NCBI GenBank assembly: GCA_964016885.1
Contig: OZ024740.1
Location: 299,956,001-300,020,000 of the forward strand
DNA length: 64,000 nt
Source: Eledone cirrhosa
Lineage: Eukaryota
Direction of reading: 5' to 3'
The notes under the pieces were generated by a model, which saw nothing but the letters and a program-made list of their open reading frames with translations, made no database searches and was not told the origin of the DNA. Shown here piece by piece: positions 5,433-50,301 of the stretch (position 1 is its first letter; each line of letters opens with the position of its first letter). Both the position numbers and the translations under genes were made by a program.

Positions 5433-8400
5433 ATTTGCAAACCCACTGACACCACACCAATACTTAAATTTCCGGTCAGCACACCCCTCACATACGAAAA
5501 GGAACATTCCCTTCAACATGGCAAGGCGCAGCTGCACTATAGCAACACAACCCCGTACTACAAGAAAAAAGATTATGTGACCTGAAAAAAATTCCTTAAT
5601 AAACAAGAATACCCGATGAAACTCATCAACGCAGCCATCTCCAAGGCTAAGAACATCCCAATAACAACACTGAGAAAACCAAAACCCACAACATAGAAAA
5701 GAAAACCCTGCTATCTCTTTTGTCATCACTCACGACCCAGGGAACGTCAACATTGTGCAAACTGCTAAGCAGTATCTCCCGATTCTACAGCAATCTACCA
5801 AAATGAATGCACTCTTAAAAAACACACAGATAATACACCAAGCACCCAACCTTAAAAACTAATTACCAAGGCAAAATTTACGACCAACATGGAATCAATT
5901 AAAGTGACGAAATGCGGGGAACCTAGATGTGGAACCTGTAAACTCATCGAAGAGGTCAAACAGTTGTCCTTCAAAAAACCATCATAATGTCAAGGTCAAT
6001 GCAAACATGAACTGCAAAACGAAAAACCTAATATATTGCGCAACATGTCCACAGTGTAAAGAGTATTACATTGGGGAAACCGGAACGGGACTACATGATA
6101 GAGTCCGGGTACATAAACAACAAATTTAAAGACCCCACAGTCAGAAATACCACATGTAGCGCACACTTTGCATCATGCGGGAAGGGAAAATTCACAATCT
6201 TCCCTTTCTTCAAGATATGGTCGGATAACGAACATTTCCGCAGATGTAAAGAAGAATTCTTCATTGAAAAATTTAAAGCACTACTGAACACGAAAAAATG
6301 AATTAACACTCGGAGGTAAAATTCCATTTCACTACCCCCCCCCCCTCTCTCTTCTTATGTGTACCAGCAACATACGACTCAATTTATACAATTTTTATTT
6401 TTTTTATTTTTTCTAATCCGGAAAAAAAATTCTTTTGGGATTTTGTGAAGAAAATAAATTTGTTGAAAGCACAAGTGAAGCCATTTTTTTCTTCCCCCCT
6501 GTCTTAATATACCTAACTGTACCAAGGATTACACACATTTTCCAATATTCTATCCCCTTGTACAAGACAGAATGGCTAACACACGTTCAAAATCCTCTAC
6601 TGAATCCCTCAAATCGGAGACACTACTACAGGAAATATCAGAAAAACTCACCATAATAATAGATAAATATGATTCCCTTACGAATGCCGTACAAGAAATG
6701 TAACAACAAACACGCAGCTATAGGGAAACACTTGATTCACTAATTACAGACCGACAAAAACAAGAACAAACCTTTTCCCTTGAAATAGCTACATATGAAC
6801 AGAACTCCATCACCAATAATGCATTCAAAGAATGGAATGAACTGAATCTAGAAAAAGAAGCCTACAGAAAAAGAAACCAAATGAAAAACATTTGGAACCA
6901 ACTATTAAATCAAAGAAAACAGGCATACTGGAAAGCCTTGAGGAGTGAAAACAGACACATACGAAATATGGCGTAGCAAGGAACCAGTTATCCTCCCGAG
7001 AAAATTCCGAATTAAAGAAATACCATCGGAATCAAAGGAAGAAACTGCAACAAGACTAAATCTAGCACTCCAAACACTTGAGACCGAAATCACCCTACTC
7101 CGCCTAAGAGTGCCAAAATTCAAAGAGAAATTTGAAAAATGCGACACCACCCTCCAAGAGGAAATAAACAAAAGAAGCAGCGGCAATGTACGTGAAAAAC
7201 TCCTTAACTTATGGCAGACAGATACAACTAGAGAGGAGTTAAAATCAAAGAAAATCTTGGAATCAAGAGCTCAATGGCTTCAAGAATATGAAGATAACTA
7301 TGGGAAAGATCAAATAAAACCCAGAAAACAAACCCATAGGAAACCCCAGAACTCAGGAAAAACACAACAACACAAGAAATGAAGCACCCACACACAATAA
7401 ACCAACAACAACCAGATATCGGGTAACCCCAAACACACAACTACATACAGACCCAATACTCAACACCAGAACCAGATACAACCACTGCCATAACACCAAG
7501 AACAATTACCGGTAACAAAATCAAAGACACATGAATACTGAACGAAACAACAGAAGAACGAGACCCCCATACAGCAAAGACCACGCAAGAGTCTATCGCC
7601 CAACCAGTTACCGGTATGAAGTTCCGGCGGGCCAAAGGTTTCACCACAACAGAAACACCGCTATCCCAAATGGCACCCATTTTTTAGGACTAGGGGCCTT
7701 GCACCAAATGAAAGAAAAAAAGAAAAAAGCACCACCTTTCAAGTGGCACCTGCCGAGAAAGAACCAATCGAACCAAAAATAATCAATATATCAGCCAAGA
7801 AATTAACACAACCACAAAATACAACTGTTAGAAACTGGACTGAAGTTCACTCCCACTCCGAAAGCAGATACAGCCGATGTTATAAAAGACACATAAGAAT
7901 ACTGTCGAAAATTACGCTTAGGAGAATTCTTCCAGGGTGTACAATACGAGGAAGAATCACTGGTGTAAAACAAAAAGTACTTCACACCCCCGCTAAATAG
8001 AGATACATACCTGGAGGAGTACATAACCTGCCTTCGCCGATCAGCACGTACAAATACGGCCGAGACGAAACACAAACGCAACATCCCTACAGACCAACTA
8101 CTAGTATTGAACAAGCTACAAAGGGATTCCTCAATAATAATAAAAGAAGCGGACAAAGGTGGAGCAATGGTCATCATGGACATAAACCACTACAAAGATA
8201 TGGCTCTAGCACACTTGGATGACGAAAACTGCTACAGGAAAATAACTAAAAACGAAGAAAGGAAATCGAGGAACCAAATAGGCAAACTAACAACAAAGTA
8301 CCAAAACAACCTATCACCAAAAGAAATAGATTACCTAACCAACTTCGAAATGAAAACCAGCAATTTCTATGGATTACCAAAAATTCACAAATCCATAGAA

Positions 8401-10214
8401 ATCCAAAACAACATAAAAGGGAAAAAATACATCATACATCGAAGCACCAAAACCGACAGACTTAAAATTACGCCCCATTATTGCTGGCCCAGCCTCAAGC
8501 ACACAACGTCTAAGCAACCTATAAGACATCATACTCAAACCCCTATGTAAAAAAAATTCCAAGCTACATCAGAGATGATATGGAATTCCTTAACTATATC
8601 CCCCAAAAAGTACACCAGGATACAATCCTAGTCAGTTTTGATGTAATAAGCCTGTACACTAACATCCCACACGACCTAGGGATTGAAGCTGTGGACTTCT
8701 GGATTACAAAACACTCAAGTCACATTTCAGAAAGATTCCCCAAAGAATTCATCTTGGAAGGACTTAAATTAGTATTGGAAAACAACCACTTCCTCTTTGA
8801 CAACGAACTTTATCTACAAATAAAAGGAACAGCCATGGGTACCAAAGTGGCCCCTACATATGCAAATAGTCGTTATGGGTCACTTAGAGGCAAAATTATA
8901 TTCCCAACTACAGATAACATTCAGTCACGACTTCGCCTTCTACATTAATAAAAACTGGAAACGTTACCTAGATGACTGCTTCATCTTCTGGAACAGAAGC
9001 CAAACAGACCTACAAAAATTTTATTCGATCTTAAACAGGCTTCATGAAGCTATACAATTCACTATGGAATGTAACGACAAGGAACTGCCCTTTCTAGATA
9101 TCCTCATCATTAAAGAAGGGGAAAATATCATAACGGACCTATTTTGCAAACCCACTGACACACACCAATACTTAAATTTCCGGTCAGCACACCCCTCACA
9201 TACGAAAAGGAACATTCCCTTCAACATGGCAAGGCGCATCTGCACTATAGCAAGACACCCCGTACTACAAGAAAAAAGATTATGTGACCTGAAAAAATTC
9301 CTTAAAAAACAAGAATACCCGATGAAACTCATCAACGCAGCCATCTCCAAGGCTAAGAACATCCCAATAACAAAACTGAGAAAACCAAACCCACAACATA
9401 AAAAAGAAAACCCTGCTATCTCTTTTGTCATCACTCACAACCCAGGGAACGTCAACATTGTGAAAACTGCTAAGCAGTATCTCCCGATTCTACAGCAATC
9501 TACCAAAATGAATGCACTCTTAAAAAACACACAGATAATTTATAGCAGACGCCAAGCACCCAACCTTAAAAAACTAATTACCAAGGCAAAATTTACGACC
9601 AGCATGGAATCAATGCAAGTGACGAAATTTGGGGACCCTAAATGTGGAACCTGCGAACTCATCGAAGAGGGCAAACAGTTGTCCTTCAAAAACCATCATA
9701 ATGTCAAGGTCAATGCAAACATGAACTGCAAAACGAAAAACCTAATATATTGCGCAACATGTCCACAGTGTAAAGAGTATTACATTGGGGAAACCGGAAC
9801 GGGACTACATGATAGAGTCTGGGTACATAAACAACAAATTAAAGACCCCACAGTCAGAAATACCACATGTAGCGCAGACTTTGCATCATGCAGGAAGGGA
9901 AAATTCACAATCTTACCTTTCTTCAAGATATGGTCGGATAACGGACATTTCCGCAGATATAAAGAAGAATTCTTCATTGAAAAATTTAAACCACTACTGA
10001 ACACGAAAAAATGAATTAACACTCGGAGGTAAAATTCCATTTCACTAACCCCCCCCCCCCCTTTTCTTATGTGTACCAACAACCAACGACTCAATTTATA
10101 AAAAAAAAAAAAAAAAATTTATTTCTAATCCGGAAAAAAATTCTTTTGGGATTTTGTGAAGAAAATAAATTTGTTGAAAGCACAAGTGAAGCCATTTATT
10201 TCTTCCCCTCTGTC

Positions 10215-10220
<6 letters not shown>
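5433..10220 (+). mobile_element. Near-complete Penelope-like retrotransposon in partial tandem, inserted in (TA)n
   Basis: 5433-6510 is a direct repeat of 9141-10220 (RT C-terminus, GIY-YIG and 3' UTR); both outer ends abut (TA)n. Confidence 0.95.
6500..10014 (+). pseudogene. Frameshifted PLE polyprotein: N-terminal extension, reverse transcriptase and GIY-YIG endonuclease
   Basis: IIKEADKGGAMVIMD, FYGLPKIHK, SFDVISLYTNIP, GTAMGTKVAPTYAN, WKRYLDDCF, LPFLDILI, CxxC linker, NLIYCATCPQCKEYYIGETG. Several frameshifts; start approximate. Confidence 0.93.
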
Positions 10221-10507: not shown

Positions 10508-10613
10508 GTACGGTTGTCCTTCCTGTTCTGTATAACCATGTCCATTACGAGTTGAGGATTCGCTAAGGTGAAACAATTGTTTTCGGTATGGTGAACTAAC
10601 TTTTGTGTAACCA

Positions 10614-10617
<4 letters not shown>
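10508..10617 (+). mobile_element. Solo PLE pseudo-LTR fragment (family E) with mutated HHR at 10548-10585
   Basis: CGAG-UUGAGGA-...-GAAA-CAAUUG-UU-UUCG; matches the copies near 25250, 53008 and 61190; between (TA)n. Confidence 0.85.
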
Positions 10618-13786: not shown

Positions 13787-15001
13787 TCCCAATCTCCAAA
13801 TCCCCGAAAAATCCTTTGAAATGCTACATAAACATTTTCCACCAAACCACAGATACCACCAAATATTTAACAAATATACTGTTAAATTCTCATACTCTAC
13901 ATCAAGCAATCTCCAGCAAAAAATAAGCAACTACAACATTTATAAACTTAAAAATAATATGACTACACCACCACAACATAAATTAAATAGGACTGCACCT
14001 TTTAAAAAGGCAAATAATACAATCCTTCAACCTAGAAAACACAACCAACCAAATCACCAACACAAAAACAACAGAACACAAAATCACAATATAACCCTAG
14101 CACGAAACCACCCACAAGGCAACCTTCATTCTCCTGCTATCATCAATTTACGGGGTCGATAAAATAAAGTACCAGTCATGTACTGGGTAATTGTTGGCCT
14201 TGTGCCTAAAATAGAAACAATTAATTACAATAGGAATAGCTCAAGGATTAATGAGAATAGTATAGGCACCGCCACCAACCATCTTACGTATGGCTGTGAT
14301 TGCAGAAATAGAAGCATTTGCTCCTTAAATGACAACTGTCTAATTAATAATTGTTTCTACTTTTGGCACAAGGCCAGCAAATACGCAGTATAATACTGGT
14401 ACTTTATTTTATCGACCCCGTAAGGATAAAATGCAAAGTTAACCTCGGCGGGATTTGAACTCAGAATGGCGGGATTTAAACTCAGAACTGTCTGATTAAT
14501 AATGTAAATAGCTCAAGGATTAATGAGAATAGTATAGGCACCCCCAACAATCATCTTACCTATGGCTGTAATTGCAGAAATAGAAGCCTTTGCCCCTTAA
14601 ATCGTAAGTGTTTGATTAATAATGTAATATATAAATGCACTGTGTCTACTAGAGACTGCAACAAAACATATATAGGATCTACATCAAACACATTTAAGAA
14701 AATATTTTACGCACACTCTAGTAGTTTCAACAATACTAAACTAGCTAACACCACATCTTTAGCTGAAGCGGTAAATAATTATAAAAAGAAAAGAATAGAT
14801 TTCAATTTATCGTGGAACACCATTCTACAAAGAACTCCATATCTTGGGAACAGGAGGGAATGCAGATTATGTTCAGGGGAGATCTTGGAAATTACTAAAT
14901 CAAAGGACGATTTATTAAATAAAAGGCAGGAACTGATCATAGTTTGTAATCACCGTATACGAAGAACATTTAAATACTATAAACCTAATCAAATATACTA
15001 A
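13787..15001 (+). pseudogene. 5'-truncated PLE (RT C-terminus/linker plus GIY-YIG), interrupted by SINEs
   Basis: [24 protein letters not shown]; CNCR..CPL..KC; NVIYKCTV..KTYIGSTSNTFK; CRLCSGE; LLNKRQE. Confidence 0.88.
14350..14490 (-). mobile_element. tRNA-derived SINE fragment (another partial copy on + at ~14125-14220)
   Basis: Shares gagttcaaatcccgccgaggttaactttgc...ccttacggggtcgataaaataaagtaccag with the other copies. Confidence 0.85.
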
Positions 15002-15221
15002 ATAGCAACTCACTATAATTCTATATAGAGTAACATTTATTTGTATCCCTTTCCCCCAAATATATGCATTCATGCTTATTTTTAACCTTTTAATATTTTA
15101 GCTTCCTTAGGTTTATGCGTTAATGATTAAAGGCAACATGGTACACCCGGAATTGCATGTGTAAATATCTATCTATGTATGATATGGAAACATATTTATG
15201 TGTGTATATATATATATTTAT

Positions 15222-15263
<42 letters not shown>

Positions 15264-15382
15264 GTATGTGTGTGTGTATGTGTGTATATATATATATGTG
15301 TGTTTGTGTGTGTGTATATGTGAGTATATGTGTATGAATGTTTATATATGAGTGTGTGTACATGTATGAGGAGTGTACATAC

Positions 15383-15416
<34 letters not shown>

Positions 15417-15652
15417 GTATATATATGTATATATATATATATGTATATATGTGTGTATGTGTAGATATATATATGTATGTATATATGTGTGTATGATTAT
15501 GTGCATATGTGTAAATGTGTATTTAGGTTTGCATCTATTTGTGCGTATGTATATTTTTGGTTGGATATCAATATAACTGTACCTCTCTATATATAGTGTG
15601 GATATATGCACTTTGTAATCTATGAAATTTATGTGTTTTAACTATGCCAACA

Positions 15653-15832
15653 TTGTTTCTCCTTTTGGTACAAGGCCAGCAATACCCAGTACATTACTGG
15701 TACTTTATCGATCCCGTAAGGATGAAAGGCAAAGGTAACCTCGGTGGGATTTGAACTCAGACCGTAAAGGGACGTAACTATGATGGAAAGCATGGCGTCC
15801 GACCCTCCACCGATACTGCCAATTCACCGCCC
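15653..15832 (-). mobile_element. tRNA-derived SINE (Meta-domain-like)
   Basis: A-box-like TGGCAGTATCGG, B-box GAGTTCAAATCC, central gcctttcatccttacggg..cgataaa motif. Confidence 0.88.
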
Positions 15833-15861
15833 AGTAACATTAAGACACATGCTGACGTTAT

Positions 15862-16068: not shown

Positions 16069-18038
16069 AGGAAAATATTTAACCCCGACGGCAGAGCTCA
16101 AGCCGTTTCGACGGTTATTTCTGGACTAAATTAGAATTTTTAGCGTTTTAAATAAATAGCAGATCTTTTCAAGGCGTAATTCCTTATATGGGAAGATTGG
16201 CGTTGTGAAAAGGATTGGTCAAAATTTCTTGTAAACACAATTAAATCTTTCATGTCATTGGGAGAGAGGTGGGGTGGTTGAACTTGCTTGTAGAACAATG
16301 AGGGAGTGGGTGCAGCCGGTTAGGCGTTGAAAGTGAACTCTATACAGCAAATTCTAATGAGTGTGTAAGAATTTAGGATAGTTAGGGAGAAGGCGAAAAA
16401 GAATCTGGAGAAATTAGAGAGGGGACTTTATATAATAGGTTAATAAATTGAGATTGAAAGATAAAAAATAAATTTAAAATTATATAAAAATAATAAAAAA
16501 TAGATAGTAAAAAGTAATAAAAAATCTCGAGAGACAAAAGCAGCTGCTATATTTATTTGGTCGGGTAATGCTATATATAATTAACTGGCGTGAGGGTACT
16601 GATGCTCCAAAAGCCCGATGGGCTGCCTCGGGGTAGGCGAAAGAGGAAAAAGGAAAAGGAAGAGGAGAGGGAGTGGAAGGAAGTGATAGGAAGGGATAAA
16701 GGGAAGAAGAAAATAAAAAGGAAAAGAAAAGAAGTACATCTACCTTTGTTAGCTGAGGTTTTCCCTATCTTGTTCGGCAAGTGGGGAAAAGAAGGATGTT
16801 ACAGCCATTGTCTACCCACCCGGGTCATGAGGGGGTTTGAGGGCGAGGTAAGTCCTACGCAAACCGTGTTTACACGCAGTTAGAAGTTCGTCTTTTTTGT
16901 TTAGGAGTTGGTCTTCGTAAACAGCATTTGTAGTGTTTCCTCCGAGCATAAGTTACACGGACAGGGTCTTAACGTGTAGGAGTTAGCCCTGGAGACAGGA
17001 AGCACCAAGTAAGATTGCATGTTATGTTATTATCTTGGAGGTTATTTTCGGCCGAGGTGACCGATCTTATAAGATTATTCCTACTATATAAACTCGCCGA
17101 AATGTTTCCTGCATTCGGCGTGGATTGTACCGAGACGATGGGCTCCTTACCCTCAAAGGGTACAACGCCAGTAGTACAGACCGGGTCCGTAAACAAATAA
17201 TCAACTTCTTCCGGGACTGGGAAATTACAATCACCCTACAAAAGTCCCTAACCCGAGTCAATTTCCTGCACGTTACCCTCTGCCTCGAAAATGATCTTTA
17301 CTACCCATACAGGAAAACTAACGACAACTTGCACTACATCCTACGTGCTCTAACCACCCTAGAAATATCACCAATAACCTGGTTAAAAACATCTCCCTCC
17401 GCATATCTCGATTGTCAGCTAATGAGCAGATATTCGATGACCATGCGCCTCATTACAACCAGGCCCACAAGCGAAGTGACTTTCGGGAGGAAATATTCCT
17501 TTTATCCAGCTTCCCTTAGTGGAACCAGCGGGCGACGCCGCCGCTCACGCCACGTAACGTGGTAAACCCTTCCCACAATGCCGAGGTGGCCACACCTATC
17601 GGGAAAATCTACTTTAGACTCCTCGAAATACACTTCCCACCACAACACCGTTACCACAACATAATCAACAAAAACAGTATCAAACTCTCCTACTGCTCCT
17701 TACCCAACTTCGCACAAAATCATCGCCTCTTCAAACAATAAGAAACTCCACCCCTATGGAAGAAACAACCTAGACATTAGTTGAGAGCCGACCAGGAGGT
17801 GTAACTGACCTGATAGATCTACGCCCCCCTCAACAACAGATGCCGAGAACGTAACATGATCTACCAATGCAACGTGGGGACGGAAACCTCCAACAAAGCC
17901 TATATAGGATTAATCGCTTGTGACTTTAAGTTCCGGCTCTACCAACACCGACATACGTTCCGAAACCCGGCCCAGCGACATGCCACTACACTTTCGGGCC
18001 ACATCTGGGATCTCCAAGATAATAACATAACATACAAT
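16069..18038. mobile_element. PLE (family C) with internal inversion
   Basis: Minus 16069-17041 is the GIY-YIG tail, 3' UTR and HHR-like motif. Plus 17042-18038 has LYRDDGL, VNFL, HFPPQHRYHNIINKNSIKLSY and IYQCNV..KAYIG. Confidence 0.9.
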
Positions 18039-19330: not shown

Positions 19331-21921
19331 TAGGAAAAGGTATGGCCCCGACGGCAGAGCTGAAGCTGTTCCGTCGGCTATTTCTGAACTAAATTAGAAT
19401 CTTTAGTCTGGTAAATAAATAGCCGAACTTTTCAAGGTGGTACTTCCTCATATAGGAAGATTGTAGTTGTCAAGCGGATTGGGCAAAATTTGCTGTAAAC
19501 ACAAATAAGTATATCATGGCAGTTGGAGGTGGAGTTTGCTGAACTTGCCTGTAGAACAACGAGGGAGTGGGTGGAGCCGGTTAAGCTTTGAAAGTGATAT
19601 CAATACGGCAAATTCTAAGGATTGTGTATGAAAATAGGCCAGAGGAGGTAGGCGAAAAAAGGTTTCTGGAGAAAATAGCGGAGGTACGTTATAGAATGGG
19701 TAAATCAATTGAGATTAGGTGACAATAAAAAAAAACTAATAAAAAATAAGAGAAAGCTATATATAAATATAAAATTGGATAGTGAGAAGTGATAAAAAAC
19801 AAAAACTATAGAGTCTTAAAGAGCTGCTATATTTAGTTGGTGTTGCTTTTTCGGTCAATTTTATAGAATTGAGTTGAGAATAGAAGATACTAAATAAGAA
19901 TTATTGAAATTGTAGAATTGAGTAGTAAAAAGTAATACAGAATCTCTGGGATCTAACACAGCTGATATGATTAGTTAGTATAGCGTATTCGGCCAATGCT
20001 ATCTTTAAGTTACTGGGGTTAAGGTACTGAGGCTACAGAGGCACGATGGGCTGCCTCGGGGTAGGCGTAAGTGGAAAAAAAGAGAACGAGGCGAAGATCG
20101 GTTGTGGAAGGAGGGGATAGGAGGAGGAGACAAAGGGAAGAAGAAAACATAGAGGAAAAGAAAAGAGGTACATCTACCTATGTAAGCTGGGGTTTCCCCT
20201 ATCTTATTCGGCCAATGGGGTGTTTCAACCCTTGTCTACCCACCCGGATCGTTAGGGGATTTGAGGGCGAGGTAAGCTTTACGCAATCTGTGTTTGCATG
20301 CAGTTACCAGTTCGTCTTTTTTGTTTAGGAGTTGATCCTTCGTAAACAGCATTTGTAATGTTTCCTCCGAGCATAAGTTACACGGACGGCGTCATCACGT
20401 GTAAGAGTTAGCTCTGGGCAGTAGGCTCCAAGTAAGATTATAAGTTATATTATTATCTTGGAGGTCCCAGATGTGGCCCGAAAGTGTAGTGGCATGTCGC
20501 CGGAGCGGGTTTCGGAACGTATGTCGGTGTTGGTAGAGCCGGGTCTTAAAGTCACAAAGCGGTTAATCCTATATAGGCTTTGTTGGAGGTTTCCGTCCCC
20601 ACGTTGCATTGGTAGATCACGTTACGTTCTCGGCATCTGTTGTTGAGGGGGCACGTAGATCTATCAGGGCAGTTATACCTCCTGGTCGGCTCTCAACTAA
20701 TGTCTAGGTTGTTTCTTCCATAGGGGTGGAGTTTTTTGTTGTTGGAGGAGAGATGTTTTGTGCGATGTTAGGTGTGGTGCTGTAGGAAAGTTTGATAGTG
20801 TTTTTGTTGATTATGTTGTGGTAGTGGTGTTGTGGTGGGAAGTGTTTTTCGAGGAGTCTAAAGAAGATTTTTCCGATAGGTGATGCCACCTCGGCATTGT
20901 GGGGGAGGGTTGCACCACGTTACGTGGCGTGAGCGGCGGCGTCGCCTGCTGGTTCCACTAAGTGAAGTTGGATAAAAGGATATTTCCTCCCGGAAGACAC
21001 TCCACTTGAGGGCCTGGTTGTAATGAGGCCTATGTTCGTCGAATATCTGCTCATTAGCGGACAAACAAGATATGCGTAGGGAGATGTTTTTAACCAAGTT
21101 ATTGGTGATGTTCCTAGGATGGTTAGAGCGGCGGTGAATGTAGTGCAGGTTGTCGTTTGGTTTCCTGTATGGGTGGTACAGATAATTTTCGAGGTTGAGG
21201 GTAACATCCAGGAAATTGACTCGGGTTAGGGACGTTTGTAGGGTGATATAGACACCAGGGATTTTGCATTACTTTTTCTACCCAATTCTACAATTTCAAT
21301 AATTCTTATTTAGTATCTTCTATTCTCAACTCTATTATATATAATTGGCAGCTGTTTTAATCTCTATTGTTTTCGTTTTTATCACTTCTCACTATCCAAT
21401 TTTATATTTCTATATATCTTTCTCTTATTTTTTTACTATTTTTTTCATTGTCTCCTAATCTCAATTGATTTACCCATTCTATAACGTCCCTCCTCTATTT
21501 TCTCCAGAAACCTTTTTTCGCCTACCTACTCTGGCCTACTTTCATACACAAACTTAGAATGTGCCTCATAGATTTCACTTTCAACGCTTGACCGGCTCCA
21601 CCCACTACCTCATTGTTCTACAGGCAAGTTCAGCCACCACCACGCCCCACCCATGCCATGATAGACTTATTTTTGTTTACAACAAATTTTGACCAATCCT
21701 CTTTACAACTACAGTCTTCCTATATAAGGAAGTACCCCCTTGAAAAGTTCGACTATTTATTTACCAGACTAAAAGTTCTAATTTAGTTCAGAAATAGCCT
21801 TCGAAACGGCTTGAGCTCTGCCGTCGGGGTCATACTTTTTCCTATTACCCTCTCTACTACTCTAAGTATTGAGTACATTAGTGCGTTATGGTCCATCTGC
21901 TTCCTTACCACAATTCCTTCG

Positions 21922-21923
<2 letters not shown>
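19331..21923 (-). mobile_element. 5'-truncated PLE (family C) with inverted pseudo-LTR at ~21250-21923
   Basis: Minus ORFs SPIGKIFFRLLEKHFPPQHHYHNIINK; homologous to 16069-18038; both ends in (TA)n. Confidence 0.9.
21786..21830 (+). ncRNA. Aberrant-core hammerhead-like motif (family C)
   Basis: CAGAAAUA-GCCUUC-GAAA-CGGC-uugagcucu-GCCG-UC-GGGG. Stem III and the GUC site are intact; the CUGANGA box is non-canonical. Confidence 0.5.
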
Positions 21924-21974
<51 letters not shown>

Positions 21975-24080
21975 GCGTGTGTGTGTATGTATCTCTATGT
22001 ATGTGTATGTACATGTGATTGCTCTCGTTCGTGTGCGTATGCAATATCAGCCATTTATATATAACATTCTGTCACCCGTTTACTTACTGCATCAAGCAAT
22101 CACCTTGTGTATCACCATAATTTTACAAACGCTAATCTATATGGGGATGTCTCTGAACCTAAAGATGAGATTCCGTGTAACTGCTGTATAATTTTAATGA
22201 ACTGCGATATATTCTTTTCACTATGATAGCCATGAAACATTCTATCGATTTATACGAATGTCTTACCGAGAATTATTTATCTGATAACCTATACTTAAAC
22301 TAGGCATTCAATCACTTAACATTCAATTGATTCCGCAATATTCGAGTCGCTTATCAAGATCTATTTTTGTGTGGAGATATTATATGCGTTAATATTGGCT
22401 GTCAGTCCAGCATAACTTAAAATTATGTCTTCACTGATTTTTAAAAGGAAAAGAGATTCATATATAATCCCCATTAGTTTCTATAGCTGGAATGCAATAT
22501 CCTTTGAAAGTCATAGAAAAAAGATATCTCTGGTAGATCTGTAGTGAACATACCAATTAACATATACGTATGTGACTATATATCTTCTATTCCATCAAGT
22601 TTTATAATACTATCATGAAAGGTACTGGCAATCCTCAGATGAAAATAAGAAACACATTTTTATTTTAATTTGTCACTAAGTTACATCACGAAATTTATTT
22701 ATCCAGAGAGTTACAACTCTGAACAATTCAGTTCAATCCCAGTAAATGACAACATTAGATAATACACTTTCGGTGTCGGTAAATTAACCTACCAGTGTCT
22801 TGCTGGGGTTCATGACGAATACGTTATTTTTAGGGTGGCGATAACGGACTATCCCCTAGCCACCAAATTTCCAGATTTTTAACCAAATAAGAAATCATGA
22901 TTTTCTCCTGCGTTAAGATGTCAAATCTGGCTGGGATCATTTTGGATTCCATTCTTCCAGCGTCGATAAAATTAATACCAGTGAAGTATTATTTTCTTTT
23001 TTATCGATTATTCGCTGTCACAAAATTGATGTTTTGAGTTTACTAGAACACAATATTCTCTGAACGATTGTGTTGATGGGAGGAAAAATATTAGATGAAG
23101 TTTAAGAAACCGAAATCATCTCGCAGAGATAGTTCCATATTATTCAGAACATCTCCTTTATAGAGACAGAGCTGGTCACTATGTTTTATTCTGATATTTC
23201 AGATTTAACTCGATCATGATATTTTAAGTTTCCGCAATACCGAGGTTTGAAGTCAATGACTGATACAAAAGCAGCAAATATTCTCATTATAAAGTAGGTA
23301 CTTTATAATGTTAATAAACACATAGCAAATCATTGTCACCTGAATAAACCATATTCTGTTGACTGAGTTAATATCCAATCATTGACAATGTGAAGTGGAA
23401 TGGGCTAAGACCAAGAACTTAATCAGAGATATTGACCATTGATAAATTGATATTAACATGCAATACGAAGCTGCAAGTAGAGACGCATTACTTTATTTCA
23501 TTTGTGACCTTTACTAGCTTTTAATAATTAGAGGCAACATGCATTGGCGTATAAAGCAAAGAGCATAATGCACTGTAATGAAGTCAATTTAACATTTATA
23601 GCTTTAACATAAACACTCACATATACATATATATTTAGTACATACAAACATGCCAATATATATACATGGCAATTGAATGGTTCTCCGTTAGTTTAGCGAT
23701 GGCTTTTTCAATCAACTAAATTACCTGCTTATAGAATTACAGTGTGAGTAGAAAGGTATTGCATGAAAATGTGTACCATTAACGTAATCTTCAGGCAGAA
23801 TTAGCGTGACACTAAGTTACACAATACTTGACCTTTGAATTTCTACTGCAATTCATCCTATGGTCTGGCTCTAGCTTACGGTTTCTTTCTGCACAGTCTC
23901 TCACTCACGACTATACCTGAATTATAATGCCCAGAGGTGAAAATAACTGAAATTCAATCAAAATTTCCTTTTTATTTCACTTGTGATCCAGGTGAACTCT
24001 AAGCCAACTAATCATTGATGAAAGGCACTTTAATCACATCTATATCCTCTTTCGTGGGGGGAATTTTAAATCTATATTAA

Positions 24081-24265
24081 GGTAGTTTGGCAGTATCGGT
24101 AGAGAGTTGCACACCATGCTCTGCAGCAAAGAGTTACGGCCCTTGCCATTCTGAGTTCAAATCCAGCCGAGGTTAACTTTGCCTTTCATCCTTACGGGGT
24201 CGATAAAATAAAGTACCAGTAATGTACTGGGATAATTGCTGGCCTTGTGCCAAAAAGTAGAAACA
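24081..24265 (+). mobile_element. tRNA-derived SINE (Meta-domain-like)
   Basis: TGGCAGTATCGG A-box, GAGTTCAAATCC B-box, gcctttcatccttacggggtcgataaaataaagtaccag core. Confidence 0.9.
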
Positions 24266-25133
24266 TATTATTTAATGTGATGTTTCCAATTTTAGGACTC
24301 TGGAGTTAGGATTTTATAGAGGTGTGAATGATATTAGTATGTAACCGATTACCAATATTTGGGAGTTTTACTGGTAGAAATTGATATGCGAAAATTGAAA
24401 GTAATTGTCAAGCATGTAAATCTTTCCATTAAAAAAGAGCTGAGAATTGTAACGTTTCTGAATAATTGGTTAAGAATACCGGAGACAGTGAAATGGTGCT
24501 GCAAATATAGAATTTATTGTGACCTATGTCCAAAGTTCTTCGATTTAAATAAAAATCCGACCAGCACCCTTGTTGCCTATCATCCTTAACATTATCATGC
24601 ATTTACAATTCACGAATAAGATATATTTATATATAAGAAAAGGGAAGTAAGGTTCTATACAAAACAGTGGATATACAGAAAAGAAGTTGGAAATAGCATG
24701 GAACATATATTTTAGATTCTGTTTTCCTTTTTGTTCCCTTCTTTGATTCGTCAGAAAGACATTAATGAAAAAAATGTGAGGCACAATTCTTTTAAAAAAG
24801 AGTTTTATAATGTATATAATGTATATAAAGTATATAAAGTATTACCGGTTTCGATATATTATTAAAATTCATTTTATCAAATGTTGAGTCTTAAAAAGAG
24901 TTAATAAGAATTGAAAACTAAAAATTAAAGATTTAAAATTACGTGTTGCGGTAAGTTTTTTTCCCATCTTCCTTGTTAAGAAGGGGACTCGAAACCGGTA
25001 ATATTTTATATACAGTATAAAATTCGGTTTTAAAAGAAATGACCCTCTCATTCTTCAAATAATATCACTTTGGCGAATCAAAGAAGGGGAAAAAAAGAAA
25101 AACAGACCCTAAAATATATTTTCCGCACTATGT

Positions 25134-25178: not shown

Positions 25179-27365
25179 AGTGGCAGCACACTGGAAGGTA
25201 ATATCCGAAGTGGTAGAGCACTCAGTATATGGGACGAGTTAGGTAGAAGTGGTTACACAACAGTTAGTTCACCATACGGAGAACAATTGTTTCACCTTAG
25301 CGTTTCCTCAGCTCGTAATGGACATGGTTATACGGAACAGGAAGTACAACTGTATGAACGCGCATGCGGAGAATCGGTCACTTCACTCAGGCAATACTAA
25401 TTTGCGTGCGAGAGGTGTAAGGGAGGTAACTGCGAAAGTCCGAAAGTTTCTAGTTGATAAGAAAATTAGGATGTTGTTGTAATTCAATACGAGGCTTTGT
25501 AATTATGTAAGAGGTGTTTCCAGACGTGTGGACATCGTGTGATGGCTTTACATTGAATGGGACCATACGTGGCTCGCGAGTTTCGTGGATGAAAGTCTGT
25601 CCCGGTACCTAAAGGTCGACTGGTGGTTCAGGAAGCGTTCCTTAAATCGGCCCTCTGCCATACGCACATAGAATTTGACCTCCTGTGGTTGATTTGGCCG
25701 GTTGGAAGTTACCAAAACTTCATAAACTACAGCAGGTGTGTTGCATTGCTGTTGAAGGGGACAAGCTTCGGGATTACGGAAAGAGCACCCTGGTGGGGTG
25801 TTGTTCTTAGGGCCGTTGGTGATGTGGGCCTTCATGTTCTTAGCGCAGGAGTATGCTAGTTTTACTTTGTGTCGGTTAAAGATGGAGCGGTATTTATGAC
25901 CTATGGTAAAAGTGTCTATCTAAGAGGGCTAGAAATGTTTAGCCTACATTGGTTTTAACGTTGAGTGAGAAGGGAGGAGAGAACCAAATAGTTTGTCTAT
26001 TGTTACGCTTTGTTTTCTTATTGCTGTTGTTGTTAGTGGGAGAGTAAGTGATAGGTTGCGAGAAGTCGCTGTTAGCTAACGCCGTCTTATAGTAGGGTTC
26101 CACTCTGTCAAAGATAGCCTTATTAGAGGAGAGGTTTGAGATTCTAGTACTGATATTATTTACGAAGTTTCTAAAACCTGTGGGAGGGTGGCATGAGACC
26201 TTGTGAATATAATTGAGTTTTTCGTTAAGCTTACGGAAGGGTCTGTAGGTGTGTGTGCGAAGGTCTAAATTAATATCTAAGAAATCTACTCTAGAGAGGT
26301 TGGTAGCTACTGTTATCCTAAGACCTAAATCCTTGAAGGTAGAAGCTAAGTCTTTTTTAAACCGGTCGAATTTGTGACCACTTTTATGGCTTGATAACTT
26401 CAGCCCATCGTCGCGGTATATCCTGTGTGGAAGTCCGGGAATCTAACACGTAATATGTCTAAAATAAATAGGCCAACCGAGTCGCATACATCAGCACTGT
26501 CAAACGATCCCATCGAGACGCCGAAAAGGTCTGAATTTGTTGACTTCTTTGCCCAAGCTACCCCGTTTTTGAAGAGAAGGGTTTTCTGGCAGTGTGCGAT
26601 GATTTTCCTGTCTAAACCATGGACGGTAGTGTAAGTGGTAGCAAAGTCTAACGCTTTGTTTAGCAGGGTCTCTGAGATCGACGGGCAAAAATCAACAATG
26701 TCAAACTGTGTGAACTTCGCTTTTTTAGATTTGAAGGAGTTAAACCACCTGATTAGGGAGTCGCTGTCCTCCCACTGGGACAGGTTGGACTTGGTCCTAA
26801 TGGTCTTAACTATGTTTCTAAGTATGGCTTTACTGACTAGTCCCATATCTGTGCGTGCCGGGTTTAGTAGTCTACATGTGTGGTTAGAAGTAAAGTCTAC
26901 CTTGTGATCTTTCAGGGTGAAGAACGTCTCCCGCTTAGCTAGAGATTGTAGCTTCTTATCTACCTTAAGGGTGGCGGCAAGTTCTTTGGCTTCTGTATTA
27001 ATGTCGTGGTAGGCCATAGGTTTAGCTTTCTTATATTTGGAAGTAATAGCGTTATGGGCTAAGTGGCTGTAAGTGGTGTTGTCGACTTTGTACATATTAT
27101 TAGTTTTGTCGGCAAGAACGAAAGTGTTATTAGAAGACCTAAATTTTTTAATATCATTTCTAAGATTAGTTTGAAAGGTGTTATGGTGTTTGCGAAAGGA
27201 AATGTTAGCGACTAAGTCAAGAAGGTCCGCCTCGAAAGGAGCAAAATCAGTTACCTCAGGAGGGTAGGCTCTCGATTTCAGGTTGAAGGTGTTATTGGGG
27301 CCTGTAATTTTGCCGTCAAAGCTTATTTCGAAGTTGCAAGGCTTATGTATAACGTAATTCTCGTC
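25179..27365 (-). mobile_element. 5'-truncated PLE (family E): RT, GIY-YIG and pseudo-LTR
   Basis: LADKTNNMY, TLKDHK, CRLLNPA, QFDIVDFCPSISE, MGSFDSADVCD; VVYEV..FYV..AEGRFKERF.NH. Confidence 0.92.
25279..25314 (-). ncRNA. Minimal hammerhead ribozyme (family E)
   Basis: GAG-CUGAGGA-aacgcuaaggu-GAAA-CAAUUG-UU-CUC. Confidence 0.7.
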
Positions 27366-27771
27366 AGACAAAATGCATAGGAGATGCAGGATTCTTTAGA
27401 AAAAAAAAAGATAATAATAAAATAAAATAATGGTCTTCAAGCTGAGGTGCCTGTCCTAAAGAGAAAGCTAATCATTGCTATGATAAAGTTAAATGAATGT
27501 TGTTTCTGATCCACCCGAAGGGAAAAAGGCAATGTACAAGTCAGGTTTACACACACACATCTTCTCACTCATCAGCTCTCAAACCAGCAACATGGTTTCG
27601 CAGGATTTAATTAAGAGCACTATCTTTAAAAGCTGGATCGTGCAACATAAAACTAAATCTTCCTGCTGGCATGATGTATGTGTAGTAAAACAAACAACAT
27701 TGTCTCTCTGTTGATAATGTTAAAATAACACTACTCTTTTCGCATGAAACATCAATAATAATAATGATAAT

Positions 27772-27980
27772 AATTGTTTCTGATTTAGGCCAGCAATCTG
27801 AAGGAGAAGGGAAAATTGATTAAATCGACCCCAGGGCATTTCTGGGGCTTTATTTTATCGAGCGCGTAAGGATGAAAGGCAAAACTAACCTCAACGGGAT
27901 ATGAGCTCAGAACGTAAAAACATGGGCCGTAACTCTATGCTGCAAAGCATGTTGTCTGACGCTCTACCGATACTGCCATT
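27772..27980 (-). mobile_element. tRNA-derived SINE, diverged
   Basis: Same family motifs (aaggatgaaaggc, gctctaccgatactgcca). Confidence 0.8.
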
Positions 27981-28008
27981 CCATAACAATAATGATCATA
28001 ATAATAAT

Positions 28009-28067
28009 AGAAGAAGAAGAAGAAGAAGAAGAAGAAGAAGAAGAAGAAGAAGAAGAAGAAGAAGAAG

Positions 28068-28097
<30 letters not shown>
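28009..28097. repeat. (GAA)n microsatellite
   Basis: Perfect trinucleotide run. Confidence 0.97.
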
Positions 28098-28098
<1 letters not shown>

Positions 28099-28628
28099 GG
28101 ATTTACAAATATATAATATATACTGGAAATGATTCGCGAATGGGAAAATGTAGGCGAGAATTGGACGACAAATTATAGAGGAAGAGAGAGATTTATTAAA
28201 AGGGGAAATGTGAGATCGAAGTATGCTTGGAAATTGAGTGTGAGTGAATGGCATGTAATATCACAGATTTAAAAAAAGCGAAACATCTATGGACACACAT
28301 ACACTTATCCACATACACATATTAGTAAATTTGCACATACGGACAAATACAATTAGAAAATCAGAAGTGGGAAGTAATAAATGAAGGAAACGTGATAGAA
28401 AAATATGTAAGAAGGAACATATCAAGGAAAATATTTCTAGTGAAGAAAACATTAGTTCCAAATGGAAGATACAAATGAAAACTGAGACGAAATTAAATGA
28501 CAATGTGTAAAGTTAGAAGACTGGAAAATAACGAATTTTTACACGACAGTATAATGTAAAGGTTGGCATAATCATATCAAGAATTGAACAAATATCTATC
28601 AATATATTACTAAAACTGTTGTGTTCAA

Positions 28629-28742
28629 ATGAGTTCAAATCCCGCCGAGGTTAACTTTGCCTTTCATCCTTATGGGGTCGATAAAATAAAGTACCAGTAA
28701 TACACTGGATATTTGCTGGCCTTGTGCCAAAAGTAGAAACAA
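28629..28742 (+). mobile_element. 5'-truncated SINE with flanking direct repeat
   Basis: B-box to tail; caatatattactaaaact occurs on both sides (~28600 and ~28740). Confidence 0.85.
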
Positions 28743-29679
28743 TATATTACTAAAACTCTGTGATTGCTTGCTTACTTGTCTGTAATGCAATACAGCCAAA
28801 AGGGCGCATAATGGGAAAATACTTTGAAAGGAAGATGCCCCTGAAATGGAAATACACATGGAATAAAACAAGTTTCGTGTAACTTGGAGCACGTGTTCCC
28901 GAGATATGGGGTTTTCTGGGTACCTTCATAAATAGAGAAAGAGAGAGAGAGAGAAGGATAGAGAAAAAGAGATAGTAGTTGTGAGAGAGTAGATTGAAAG
29001 AGAAACATAGAGAGAGGGAGAGGAGACAGAGAAGGAGAATAGAAGAGAGAGAGCTGGTGGTGTTGTCGTATATATATATGTGAGTGTGTGTATATATATA
29101 TATGTGTGTATATGTGTGTGTGTGAGTCTATGACCAGTGCATATAAATCACAGGCGCCCACATATATATATATACACACACACACATACACACACATATG
29201 TATACATACAGACACGTATATATATGGACCTTCCAGTTTCATTTCACATTATATACATGTCTGTGTATATTTTAATTATTCAAAAATGATTTTTAAGTGA
29301 ACATGTTTTAAAAAATTTATTTTGAAGTGAATGTGAACCAACGGGTTACGGGTAGTCTATTAGTTAATGAAGATAAAAACAGAAATTATTTACAATACAG
29401 AGATTTAAGATTTTTGCAGAGATAGGAAGAAAGAATGTAAGGGAAATTTTGAAAAAAGGTATGAGTGATCTTAGAATGATCTTAGAATGATCTTAGAATG
29501 ATCTTAGAAACTATGGCCACGTCACTAGTGTAATAAGTAAAGTGAATGAAAAAGAATAAATATAAAAAAAGAGAAAAAGTAAAAAAAAAGGGCTGTTGTA
29601 CAATCATGAATGCAGATTTGATGAAAAGGCTGTGAAAACGAAAATGAATTTAACAGTGGGAACGCGGGGGAAATATCGA

Positions 29680-32920: not shown

Positions 32921-35900
32921 CTATCTAAGGCGGGTAAAATTCCCGAGATCCATGGACGAGTTCTCTGCAGCGGTCTCTGTCCCTCATTATCGCTGCCATG
33001 TCCTGCGTCTCCAACAGACCAGTGTCTGTCCTTAGGGCATCAACATACGTTAACCTTGGTCTTATTCTTCTAGTGTGTCCATGTAGGGGCTCCCAAAGGA
33101 ACACTGAGTGCAATGTCAACTCTGGATGTCGGTGAGCATGTCCAGCTAACCTCAGTCTCCTCTCTGTCACTTTTGAGCTGACTTTTGGGATGCTCCCATA
33201 CAGCTCTGAGTTTTTCATCCTCAGTGTATACTGATTAATGTTCAAAGCCATCCTCAGCATTCTCGTGTAGCCCCCATCCACCATCTGGGTGAGTTTCTTG
33301 GTCAGTGTCCAAGTCTCAGACCCATACAGCAGCACAGACTCCACTACATCAATGAAGAGGCGGATTTTCAGGTCTCTACGAAGGTCCGACTTCCACACCG
33401 ATCTCAAGCTGTGGCACGCCGCCCAGGCCTTGCTCTTCCTCTCAACCACATCATCTTCCGTATTCCCAATCTTTGCTCCCAAATACAGGAAGCCCTCAAC
33501 CAATTCTAGCGGCTTCCCGCCTTCATTAGTGATACCCTCTTGCTTCTCAACATTCTCTACCAGATATTTTGTTTTAGTCTCATTCATTCTCAGCCCCACA
33601 CTCATCGACACAGTCTCAACCTCCCGCATCAAATCCTCTGCCTCCCTCACTGTATTTGTCACCAAAACTATATCGTCGGCAAATTCAGCATCCGATACCT
33701 TTTTCGCCCTAACTCTCCTGCTCTGAGCCGGTGCCACAGTAAAGCCAGAGTCCTGGTGTTTCTCCAGTGCAAGGCGCATACAATAGTCCACTACGATGAT
33801 AAAAAGGTAGGGAGCCAATGTATCTCCCTGGAGCACTCCAGCCAGTATCTCAAAGAACTCTGTCATCCCATCAGGTGTAATGACTTGGGCTTTGGTGTTG
33901 GTCTAGAGCAGTGATATCAGGTCCACTATCTTCTTGGGGATTCCATAAGCCTGTAAGATCTTCATCAGGCAGTAACGGTCCACAGAATCAAAGGCCTTCC
34001 TAAAGTCAATGAAAACCATGACAGCAGGAAGGCACTTTGCTCTAGCTCCTTCTAAATATCCTCCTCAGCATCAGGATGTGACTGGTGGTTGATCTACCCT
34101 CTCTAAAGCCGTTCTGGTTGTCCCTGAGCTTCTTCTCCATCTCAAGCTGGATCCTGTTAAGAATCATCCTGTTGAGGGTCTTTGCCACAAGTGACGTCAG
34201 TGAGATCCCCCGGTAGTTGTTGGTGTTAGAGAGATCTCCCTTCTTGGGCACTGGGACGATGTTACTGATCCTCCACTGATTCGGGGCAACTCCTTTCTCC
34301 AGTGCCCCGTTACAGAACCCCAGGATGATATCATCAAAATCACACCTCTTCATCATCTCTGATGCCACTCCATCTTCTCCATGAGCCTTGCCCTCCTTGA
34401 TCCTCTTCTTGGCTCTTTGAAGCTCCTCTCTGGTGAAGGGCTCTGTCTCAACATCCAGTTCCTCAAACAGCCGCCTGATCTCCCCAGTGCTCTGGGCTGT
34501 GGAGGGTGGCTCTCCTAGTAGGGTCCTAAAATGGTCTAGCCATTTCCTCTTCCTATCCTCGGGCCCCGTTCCCTGGATCTGACTCGAACACCTTTTCTTC
34601 CTCCCTGTGATCTCGTTGATGATCATCCAGCTCTCCTTACATCCAGATCTGTCAACCGCTCTCTCCACACTTCTGATCTTCTCTATCAGTGCCTCCTCTC
34701 TGACCTCAGTGTAAGCGGTACAGAGCTCTTCCCTCATCACCTCCACAGTCTCCATCCTCTCTTCCGTAGGATCAGCATAGAATTGGTCCTTGGCAGCTTT
34801 CAGGTGTTCTCTGGCTGCACACACTTTTGGGTTTGCAGAGCTGACGTGCTTCCCTTTTATTCTTCTTCCTCGGCACCGGGGTTTCACTTGCTTCCGCCAC
34901 TGCATTGGTGAAGTGCCCGTACCTCCTCGTCACACTCTCATCAGTCCATCCAATCTCTCTCTCCCCTGACTCTCTACACAGAGCACTAAACCTGTTTCTC
35001 ACTTCCACTGTGAACCTCTCCTGTAACCTATCATCTTCCTTGAAAGCTCCCCAGTCATAGATTGCTCTCCGGGGCCGAGCCGTGCTCTTTCTTAAGCTCA
35101 CCCGGACCCCACTCATAACAAGCCGGTGGTCACTACCCAGTGTACTGAAATAGTTGTATGGTTCTGTGTTCAGAACACTATTCCGCCACTTTTTCCTCAC
35201 CAGAATGAAATCAATCTGGGACTTGGACAGGTGCATATCTGAGATGTAGGTCCACATCTTCCCCAGATTCTTCCTAAACCTTAGGTTGGTCGCCATCAAG
35301 TTCGCCTCCAGCAGGGTGTCTCTCAGTAGTCTTCCATTTCGGTTGGTGTTGTTATGTAAGTACCAGCAAGGATCTTCACTGCCCTCCTTACTCAGATGTG
35401 CATTGAAGTCCCCCAAAACAAGCAGGATATTGTGTGCCTGAGTGGTGTTGACAGCTCTACAGACCTCCTCATGGAACTCTTCCGCACTCACATCACTGTC
35501 CTCCTCAGTTGGACTATAGGCTGAGATGATTGTCAGTCTTGGGTTTCCATTGAAGGTCACCCTCAACACTCACGGGGAGATTATTTCCCTCACCAACAGA
35601 TTGGTTTTTGCACTGAACACAAAACCCACTCCTCCTACTGCAGCATTTGTTGTGTTCTTCACTGCCGATGTAGCGATGCGCTGGCTACTCTTCCCGATCA
35701 TCACACTCCTCACGGGCTCATCGTGTAGGATCCTGTGTTCTTGGATCGCAAGTATCTGTATACCACTCTCCTCGATCAGATGTCCCAACTCCTCTCTCTT
35801 CTCCAGCGTCCGAATAGTCCTCACTTTCAAAGTGCCCATTTTGATGGCTCTTCTGCAGGACAAAACTGCATTCTTTATATTTGTCTCAGAGACAGCTGAT

Positions 35901-36244
35901 CCATCATCCACTGGCCCTCTCTGTGGCTCTAAGCCAGCAGAGTCATAACGACCAGGCTGCTCCTTGACAGTGTAATTAGGGGCTCTAACCCTAGTGCTGT
36001 TAGATCGACTCTCCATATTTATTTTCAATGGCTGATGATACCTTACCGGCGCCACTCGAATAAGGTAGTTATTTAACCCATAAATGGAGCCCTAACAGGT
36101 ACTACCACCCCGGGCCAGGGCAGACTTGGGAGTCAAGACAACTAAGGGGTAACTCCACATTCCCCACAACTCCTGAACTCCCGACCTGGAGCCTTGCCAC
36201 TGGATGTAGTTGCCACTGGATGTAGTTTAATGTCATACCCAGAA
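32921..36244 (-). mobile_element. Near-full-length RTE-like LINE (AP endonuclease plus RT), frameshifted
   Basis: APE: GTLKVRT, LAIQEHR, ISAYSPT, LGDFNAH, SQIDFILV, GSDHRLV. RT: PVPKKGD, NYRGISL, QNGFREGRST, GVLQGDTLAPYLF, EFADD. Short (TAGA) tail; GC-richer than flanks. Confidence 0.95.
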
Positions 36245-40872: not shown

Positions 40873-42177
40873 GTATATATATATATGTAACATCCATATG
40901 TAACATTCAGCATGAGTAAATATATACTGTAATACCATCTAAGTATGTAAAGAGAAGGAAGTAATCATTGGTCAGAACATTAAAATTAGCGATAGGCAAT
41001 ATGTTATAAGGACTAAGAAAAGTTAAAGCCTTTAAATAACGCGACGCTGTGAACGAGAGAATATAACATAAGAAGGGGAAAGATGAGTGTCACGAGACGA
41101 AGAGATAAGTGGTAATGATAACAAACGAAACAGTTTACGTATTTAGATTGTATAGTCTAGCTGAGACCGTAAATATTATTTGAAATGTAAATGAACGAAA
41201 TCGTGAGTCAGAATAATCTAAATATTGTTTAGAAAGATTCAAGAAAAATAGAGCATTTGGACATTAATGTACTTATGTAAATATTGTATGATTATATAGT
41301 AACGTGTAGTACGGTATCACTCATGAACACACATGTTTGATTTGACAGGTAAGTTTATCAATATTATATCTAAATGCATATTATTTAGGTGAATTAGTAC
41401 ACATATTCTACTCTGCATAATTACCAAGTGTTATCATCAATATTTGTTTAAATATTCATCAGGTTAAATGCAATTGGAACCGTAATATTAATTTGAAATT
41501 TAAATGAACAAATTCAATGTATAGCTAGGAGTCAGAACAAACTATAGGTTGTTTTGCATAGTTAACTATGCCAGAAGAAAAATCAGTTTGTAAACAATAT
41601 CGCCATTTAAACATTAAATGAAGATTTTCTTTATTGTATTAAGAAATATGAGACATTTAAATCAGATATGGCAAGCGGGTTCTATGTAGCTATCTTTAAA
41701 GATTTCTTAAAGTTAAACTAGCAGAGTTCTATTATCAATTAGAGTTACATGTTATAATTCTTTAAATATTTCATGCAGGCAAAGAAGCAGAGTTCAGTTA
41801 GTGTTAACTTATAAACAAATCAATGTTTTCATATTTCGTAGTGATGAGATAATTTACATATTGGTTGTAGTCAGTTATCAATATATTCCAATAACATTCC
41901 TAGTCAGAGTTCAATTAGTATAATTTGGAGATTCCTAGTGATCGATCGCATAATTCACAATGATGCTACCACGAAAAATGTATAATTCATCGCTATTCAA
42001 TGTGTTGCTTAGCGATATATGGTTTACACCTGTACGTGTATGCGTACACACACACACACGCACGCACGAAGCACACATACACATACATATATATATATGA
42101 ATTGTACAATATATGTATGAATTGTACAATTTTTCGTGGAAGCAACATACTAGTTGGTATAACAATACATTATAATA

Positions 42178-42364
42178 GGGCGGTGGATTGGCAGTATCGG
42201 TTGAGGGTCGCATGCCATTCTTTGCAGCATAGAGTTACGGCCCTTTATGGTCTGAGTTCAAATCCCACCGAAGTTAACTTTGCCTTTCATCCTTACGGAG
42301 TCGATAAAATAAAGTACCAGTAATGCAGTGGGATAATTGCTGGCCTTGTGCCAAAAGTAGAAAT
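42178..42364 (+). mobile_element. tRNA-derived SINE
   Basis: Full-length family copy with (AAT)n tail. Confidence 0.9.
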
Positions 42365-50138: not shown

Positions 50139-50207
50139 CATATATACATATATATACATATATATTTATATATTTACATATATATTTATATATTTACATA
50201 TATACCT

Positions 50208-50301
50208 AAAGAAAGGGTGGTAAGAAACCATGTGGGCCATAGTTCGGATCTAGCTGTCGAAACGTCGGAGCTCAGCCGTCGGGCTCCTGATCCTTTTCCT
50301 A
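50208..50301 (+). mobile_element. Diverged family C pseudo-LTR fragment
   Basis: CGGAUCUA-GCUGUC-GAAA-CG..gagcuca..CG-UC-GGG, ending ttcct(AT)n. Confidence 0.65.

Follow-up and report, generated by a model that had tools for sequence, protein, structure and literature searches.

The window analysed here, 64,000 nt of the Eledone cirrhosa contig OZ024740.1, holds eight copies of a short hammerhead-like motif, all of which belong to one repeat family ending at (TA)n. The focal copy lies in the inverted 5′ arm (21249–21925, plus strand) of an insertion whose main arm (19333–21247, minus strand) consists of a broken C-terminus of a reverse transcriptase (RT), a GIY-YIG endonuclease (EN), a 3′ UTR of approximately 1 kb, and a complete predicted hammerhead (core at 19435–19429, predicted cut after 19350). 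Within this insertion (19333–21925), the ribozyme is sense to the open reading frame (ORF), in the order RT, endonuclease, UTR, and motif. A second insertion (16069–18038, minus strand) has an arm with the 3′ UTR and a complete hammerhead (core at 16172–16166), and also holds an inverted RT-EN fragment at approximately 17092–18038 (plus strand). Numbering positions from the predicted cut after GUC, with C17 as −1 and the next G as +1, the five other copies begin at −38 to −42. Two of these half-ribozymes, which start at −40 and −38, share a stub insertion (1621–2009) that also contains a jump to the ORF start and an arm of inverted tail; two more stand head to head at 58632–58820, each starting at −38; and the last belongs to an older stub of subfamily B (50205–50302, plus strand), in which it starts at −42 behind a short inverted tail piece. 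Downstream of the focal ribozyme, the tail (21831–21925, plus strand) has two 3′ ends meeting (TA)n, namely CCTA at approximately 21843 and CGTTA at approximately 21925, and a small hairpin. The hairpin motif (21852–21876) is common to Hydra-2_Amil and to the metagenome relatives L382 (2228 onward) and L383.

When the 3.0-Gb animal genome was searched at the protein level, open frames of up to 784 codons were recovered. One locus (L093) is intact, with the order motif, ORF, UTR, and motif and a period of 3,531 nt; the ribozyme is present in both repeats, which were identical at 373 of 373 bases over the stretch compared. Its single ORF of 717 aa, which Pfam matched neither whole nor in its fragments, encodes an RT followed by a C-terminal GIY-YIG domain, with YRDD and VIY...YIG legible in the translation. 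The protein also contains DKT, RWR (RWK with a K-to-R change), and a C-x-C-x5-C linker, all Hydra motifs, and its endonuclease is without CCHH and has only one Cys between VIY and YIG; late in this domain come CxxC and CxH, which in the clade flank the conserved E and N. Further Hydra-clade traits found are insertion into (TA)n, tandem and inverted pseudo-LTRs (pLTRs), and an optional tail, the defining features being taken from Craig et al. (2021; PMC8557442). By these motifs, the element is a Hydra-clade Penelope-like element (PLE); its comparison with Hydra-1_Obim was made by eye. Elsewhere in the genome (G000:C2:356030072-356031892), seven tail-to-ORF junction matches recur with a 299-bp period, a short tandem derivative that is possibly retrozyme-like.

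Several other repeats occupy the window. A further Hydra-like family, whose minimal hammerhead has the canonical core CUGA(G/A)GA, occurs at 25246–25466 (minus), 53008–53117 (minus), 61076–61298 (plus), and 10508–10615 (plus), with a coding remnant at 25548–27395 (minus), 5,351 exact genome matches, and two 3′ ends; its copies are likewise found as head-to-head stubs, whose limit, approximately 70 nt upstream of the cut, is looser. More hammerhead-like patterns of canonical type, at 44306–44341 (plus), 59419–59389 (minus), and 45284–45240 (minus), come from other repeat families. A broken PLE of another type (RYLDD; GIY-YIG, PF01541) spans 6942–10217 (plus), with a duplicate at 5435–6506. In addition, there are a broken LINE in which an endonuclease-like frame precedes RVT_1 (32925–36091, minus), a fragment of a Pif1-type helicase with more frames behind it that may be left from a Helitron (46733–48191, plus), and an abundant SINE-like repeat family of approximately 200 bp (14148–15842, 24076–24275, 27787–28755, 42169–42377, 43887–44102, and 50997–51874).

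Anatomy of the predicted hammerhead

Judging from sequence and modelled folding, the focal motif is probably the 3′ half of a complete predicted type I hammerhead in the pLTR of a Hydra-clade PLE. On the plus strand, the 5′ strand of stem I (21735–21739; ACCCC in the family) pairs with the 3′ strand GGGGU (21826–21830), and is followed by the core UUGAAAA (U3 U4 G5 A6 N7 A8 A9; 21740–21746), approximately 50 nt upstream of the core that was originally proposed. Stem II, of about 10 bp with a 36-nt inner loop, is formed by a 5′ strand at 21747–21758 (G10.1, a small bulge, then CGGCUAUUU in the family) and a 3′ strand at 21792–21802, which contains most of the originally proposed core. Between them lies the long loop II (21759–21791) with a subfamily-specific inner hairpin; it includes the initiator-like TTAGTYC (21783–21789), whose A at 21785 is at −41 from the cut, the boundary at which most short copies begin. 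G12 A13 A14, stem III, U16.1, and C17 occupy 21803–21825, with the predicted cut after 21825; stem III has 5 bp and a 9-nt loop with the palindrome GAGCUC. A short AT-rich, near-palindromic motif approximately 10–20 nt before stem I (approximately 21719–21729) is conserved in all subfamilies.

Only three of the eight window copies (21786, 19346, and 16083) reach far enough upstream to include the core, which in the latter two is again UUGAAAA; the other five lack it because of where they begin, 38–42 nt before the cut site. The focal copy itself carries one G-to-A change relative to the family in the 5′ strand of stem II and one G-to-T change in the 3′ strand. With these two pairs broken, it does not fold as a junction and has probably decayed.

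The pairing of the complete structure was assessed in 30 hand-picked copies spanning subfamilies. Of 629 cells, 92.5% were paired and 35 showed double changes, a result inflated by relatedness, since the covariation reflects a few subfamily splits rather than many independent events; none of 500 shuffles scored as high, and slid controls gave 30–50%. Paired cells amounted to 88.7, 93.3, and 96.0% for stems I, II, and III, respectively. Compensatory changes between subfamilies in stem II included G-C/A-U, U-A/G-C, and U-A/A-U. Comparing the common subfamilies with the older one at 50242, UAGCYG just before GAAA covaries with CRGCUA approximately 45 nt upstream, directly in front of which stands UUGANAA, preceded by the ACCCC that pairs with GGGGU after GUC. 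The pair A15.1–U16.1 was A-U in 29 of 30 copies, G10.1–C11.1 was G-C in 27 and G-U in three, and position 17 was H. The three helices surround the core and are open at stem I, with U4 G5 A6 N7 A9 and G12 A13 A14 in place, as in a type I hammerhead.

In an intact young copy, the MFE fold was the three-way junction, including stem I, with helix probabilities of 0.98, 0.77, and 0.76. Among 14 single copies, the junction was the MFE structure or within 1.6 kcal/mol of it in six, mostly young ones, and RNAalifold favoured a rival structure containing a GCYGU/ACGGC hairpin. Genome-wide, the tail had 29,530 exact matches and the full ribozyme pattern, with its seven core letters left free, 5,694; reversed controls had none. 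Rfam returned no hammerhead match at E up to 10, either on the intact element or at the window sites, which is likely a consequence of the long loop II and the core swap. Apart from this, every sequence and pairing feature examined agrees with a ribozyme that would work like a type I hammerhead. Minimal dimer-dependent PLE hammerheads have a stem III that is absent or of 1–2 bp, in contrast to the 5 bp found here; given the palindromic loop, a dimer form is possible.

The original prediction had placed the 5′ core in CRGANNUA and had proposed a minimal hammerhead with a 1-bp stem II, which was taken to represent a new catalytic core or else a structure that binds RT but is catalytically dead. 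We now regard this reading as highly improbable. Much of what it reported holds: the eight copies do read CAGAAUUA, CAGAAAUA, CAGACAUA or CGGAUCUA followed by GAAA, and ACGGC/GCCGU with the GAGCUC loop and then GUC are present, the exceptions being GCC for GUC in one of the eight (the copy cut after 58724) and GGAAC for GAAAC in the 19346 copy. GAAA, stem III, and GUC were placed correctly, and the assignment to a hammerhead of a PLE was also right. In favour of CRGANNUA as a core, its C, GA, and UA letters are conserved between subfamilies, and short RNAs starting at −41 would hold this half only. In that register, however, the 3–8 pair formed in none of the 30 copies, stem I was paired in 42.7% of cells (65.7% overall), and there was no excess over shuffles, 247 of 500 scoring as high; a near-canonical core with a perfect stem I is found 50 nt upstream in nearly all complete copies. 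The letters are indeed constrained, though not as parts of an aberrant core. UA, with the NN before it, falls in the 3′ strand of the long stem II, which covaries with the upstream strand, and C is part of the TTAGTYC motif; these two features explain the conservation. CRGANNUA is loop plus the 3′ strand of stem II, there is no 1-bp stem II, and neither a new core nor a dead structure follows. A canonical CUGANGA consensus, which the original prediction had named as counting against it, is literally not what was found, the family core being UUGANAA; the claim of a new core fails anyway.

We also considered a canonical-core subfamily in the register of the original prediction. There were 35 genomic CUGANGA matches close before stem III; most of the 30 inspected were inversion junctions, a few were joins to other sequence, and one was an unrelated element. 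This candidate was rejected, as were the type II permutation, hairpin-ribozyme, and HDV-like readings, none of which fitted by eye. Two loci (L111 and L129, at approximately 1500) share the same foreign upstream sequence ending in canonical CUGAGGA, fused to the 3′ half of the present family, which suggests template switches between families at the ribozyme. An unrelated element (L123:1500-1550) has a canonical core and a stem III of identical 5-bp sequence.

Core states and the 3–8 pair

Among the first 100 of the 5,694 pattern matches, read by eye, 77 were UUGANAA, 18 CUGANAA, two UUGANGA, and three others. A tally of 63 fetched copies, from loci unselected on the core (23 rows from core-selected loci were left out), gave U4, G5, A6, and A8 in 63/63 each and A9 in 62/63, with all four letters at N7. 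Position 3 was U in 50 copies, C in 11, and A in two; U3–A8 thus forms a Watson–Crick pair in 50 of 63, and C3·A8 and A3·A8 are unpaired. Forms with G8 amounted to 50 copies genome-wide, seven of which were C3–G8 by eye. Across seven sequence groups, U4, G5, A6, A9, GAAA, and GUC are invariant, and N7 and loop II vary; position 3 stays a pyrimidine and position 8 a purine, and the youngest intact copies have the paired U3–A8. When 86 rows were placed in a tree after masking of the core, C3·A8 formed a grade between older and youngest U3–A8 groups, and U3·G8 occurred in two older groups; with a midpoint root and an unsettled bootstrap, the order of groups is tentative. The C3·A8 mismatch subfamily placed there (L069, L104, L103, and others) has been amplified.

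The U3–A8 combination is a natural hammerhead variant reported to be active in vitro (PMC3088659), and approximately 1,300 Schistosoma PLE motifs with it are described in PMC4209133. The same compensatory 3/8 swap in a PLE pLTR is given there for the Cercyon PLEs of Schistosoma mansoni; the Cercyon forms are minimal and without a real stem III, whereas the ribozyme described here has a full stem III and a monomer fold in the youngest copies. According to Craig et al. (PMC8557442), Hydra-clade type I hammerheads are likewise sense to the ORF, near the 3′ end, and in the pLTR, and share (TA)n targets, the tail motif, G10.1–C11.1, and GAAAC...GUH. All 26 Hydra rows of their File S2 have C3–G8 rather than U3–A8, a stem II of 3–7 bp (here ~10 bp) whose loop does not exceed 10 nt (here 36 nt), and a short stem III (here 5 bp and a 9-nt loop). 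Ribozymes were seen behind relatives in four of eight metagenome loci, three of which are one element, and these, too, are C3–G8. The ribozyme itself is ordinary, combining a published core swap with a published clade: it is a larger-than-usual example of a known variant, missed by Rfam, and the false "new core", a misreading, is hereby corrected.

The 5′ boundary inside the ribozyme

Among the first 90 of the 29,530 exact tail matches, 55 start between −35 and −45, another 25 start further in, two at −48 and −57, and eight run through. The stop rate was 13% per nt in this 11-nt zone, compared to 0.7% before and 0.4% after it, and none of 63 measured inverted arms extended past −45. In subfamily B (first 30 of 1,361 matches), 29 copies end at or inside −46, with a mode of −41; some copies of this subfamily reach −50 to −58. 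Copies most often start with the A of TTAGTYC, a motif kept in all seven groups (TCAGT in one) while the surrounding loop turns over. A non-template base just before this A was found in 9,984 pattern matches; in 100 listed matches, the letter before it was G in 39, C in 53, and A in eight, as counted by eye and with many explained by the inverted arm, and at −42 in the fetched loci it was C in nine, G in three, and A in three. Contig depth steps up at the boundary in two runs of one study, these being contigs of unknown kind that do not show RNA ends. No pile-up of 5′ ends at the cut site was seen in the tail copies, four of the 90 beginning at +1 or +2. Copies bearing the ORF behave differently: of the first 30 of 147 matches, 25 (16 of approximately 21 independent insertions) run through the boundary, one ends at −38, and three end at the cut site; several lie in exact tandem arrays.

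A splice acceptor was rejected as an explanation, as there is no constant upstream exon, and so was an intact hairpin folding back at the junctions, as the natural loop is not kept. The boundary may be a transcription start at the initiator-like TTAGTY, with run-off at approximately −41 leaving the stubs, an interpretation to which we give an even chance. At the modal boundary, TTAGTYC or TCAGTY resembles the initiator consensus, although this consensus is short; also against a start site, ends are spread from −35 to −45 and, in some B copies, −50 to −58, and most ORF-bearing copies run through, only one ending at −38. A plausible competitor, which on balance we do not favour, is that −41 marks a stop of the RT, at bound protein or the folded stem II, or a nuclease cut in loop II. 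In its favour, long copies pass the boundary, and no clear cap-derived G is seen at −42; moreover, the inner hairpin of subfamily A has its apical loop exactly at the outer limit (−45), and in subfamily B the second group of ends is near the apical loop of that subfamily's own hairpin. Yet subfamilies A and B share the same modal A despite having different inner hairpins, and the only subfamily change adjoining it is TTAGT to TCAGT. An enzyme that stalls should do so where it enters the helix (−24) rather than beyond it. Junctions with runs of 16 A or T (L270 and L219) suggest run-off followed by untemplated addition, and −41 is also where copies begin that adjoin flanking DNA directly.

Boundaries and inverted ends have partial parallels among PLEs, as far as the sections consulted of the respective reports go. 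In Poseidon of Anolis carolinensis (PMC11167929), two internal starts downstream of the ribozyme define the "tail", targets are AT-rich, and both strands are extended; it belongs to another clade, and those sections describe no fixed 5′ boundary inside the ribozyme. An internal promoter or initiator-like motif and head-to-head inverted pLTRs with palindromic junctions are known from Drosophila virilis Penelope (PMC2377424) and the pLTRs of Adineta vaga (PMC3846280). The D. virilis start site, however, is upstream of an intron ending at helix I and hence upstream of the ribozyme, unlike the candidate start between the two ribozyme halves proposed here (PMC2377424). A literature search that covered few subscription papers turned up no account of transcription starting, or of a strong stop, within the ribozyme of a PLE, and one for kinetic data on C3·A8 cores yielded nothing of use.

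Templates, stubs, and the possible role of cleavage

Stubs of 58 and 136 nt number tens of thousands in the genome. As a model for their origin, the enzyme would prime on nicked (TA)n at two internal sites, at approximately +17 and +95. Many templates would begin at approximately −41, and copying would then run off the RNA 5′ end after 58 or 136 nt; two such stub cDNAs would usually be joined head to head. Nicking of AT-rich DNA, extension of both strands, and two internal starts behind the ribozyme have been described for a PLE enzyme, and an internal promoter for a PLE pLTR, in PMC11167929 and PMC2377424, respectively. That long copies pass through the boundary speaks against an RNA starting at −41 as the only template; the long copies would come from templates holding the whole ribozyme, either cut and circularised or read-through RNA. 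We lean towards a model in which cleavage by the intact ribozyme, either as a monomer or assisted by the protein that the element encodes, sets free a unit of 3,531 nt; tandem arrays would then arise when this unit is copied in circular form or through template jumps.

The alternative is that the hammerhead fold, though real, is weak or can be dispensed with, being kept mainly as a structural or promoter scaffold, so that cleavage adds little to transposition. The master lineage appears to pass through C3·A8 between two U3–A8 stages, with U3·G8 earlier, the rival hairpin competes with stems II and III, and few tail copies begin at the cut; in addition, Poseidon ribozyme mutants showed unimpaired insertion in vitro (PMC11167929). 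Nonetheless, we consider this alternative unlikely. The core letters, GAAA, and GUC are fixed across the seven groups when N7 and loop II are not, the pyrimidine at 3 and the purine at 8 are retained, and the youngest intact copies are paired. Furthermore, three of the five ORF-bearing copies that end within the ribozyme stop at the cut site, and the exact tandem arrays of 3,531–3,543 nt fit a unit-length or circular template.

A more far-reaching scheme is possible, although on balance doubtful. In it, the element would start its transcript inside its own ribozyme, so that the 5′ end would hold the substrate half and not cut itself, while the complete 3′ copy would cut, leaving a 41-nt terminal redundancy comparable to retroviral R. 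The 58- and 136-nt stubs would then be strong-stop cDNAs for which the jump did not succeed, and some would be non-autonomous elements that carry their own promoter. If true, this would offer a testable origin for pLTRs and inverted PLE ends.

The subfamilies that amplified with U3–A8, U3·G8, and C3·A8 constitute a natural series for examining how far PLE movement depends on cleavage. The sharp internal 5′ boundary points to the place where the template RNA of a PLE begins or where its enzyme stops, and in this way bears on how pseudo-LTRs and head-to-head inverted ends form.
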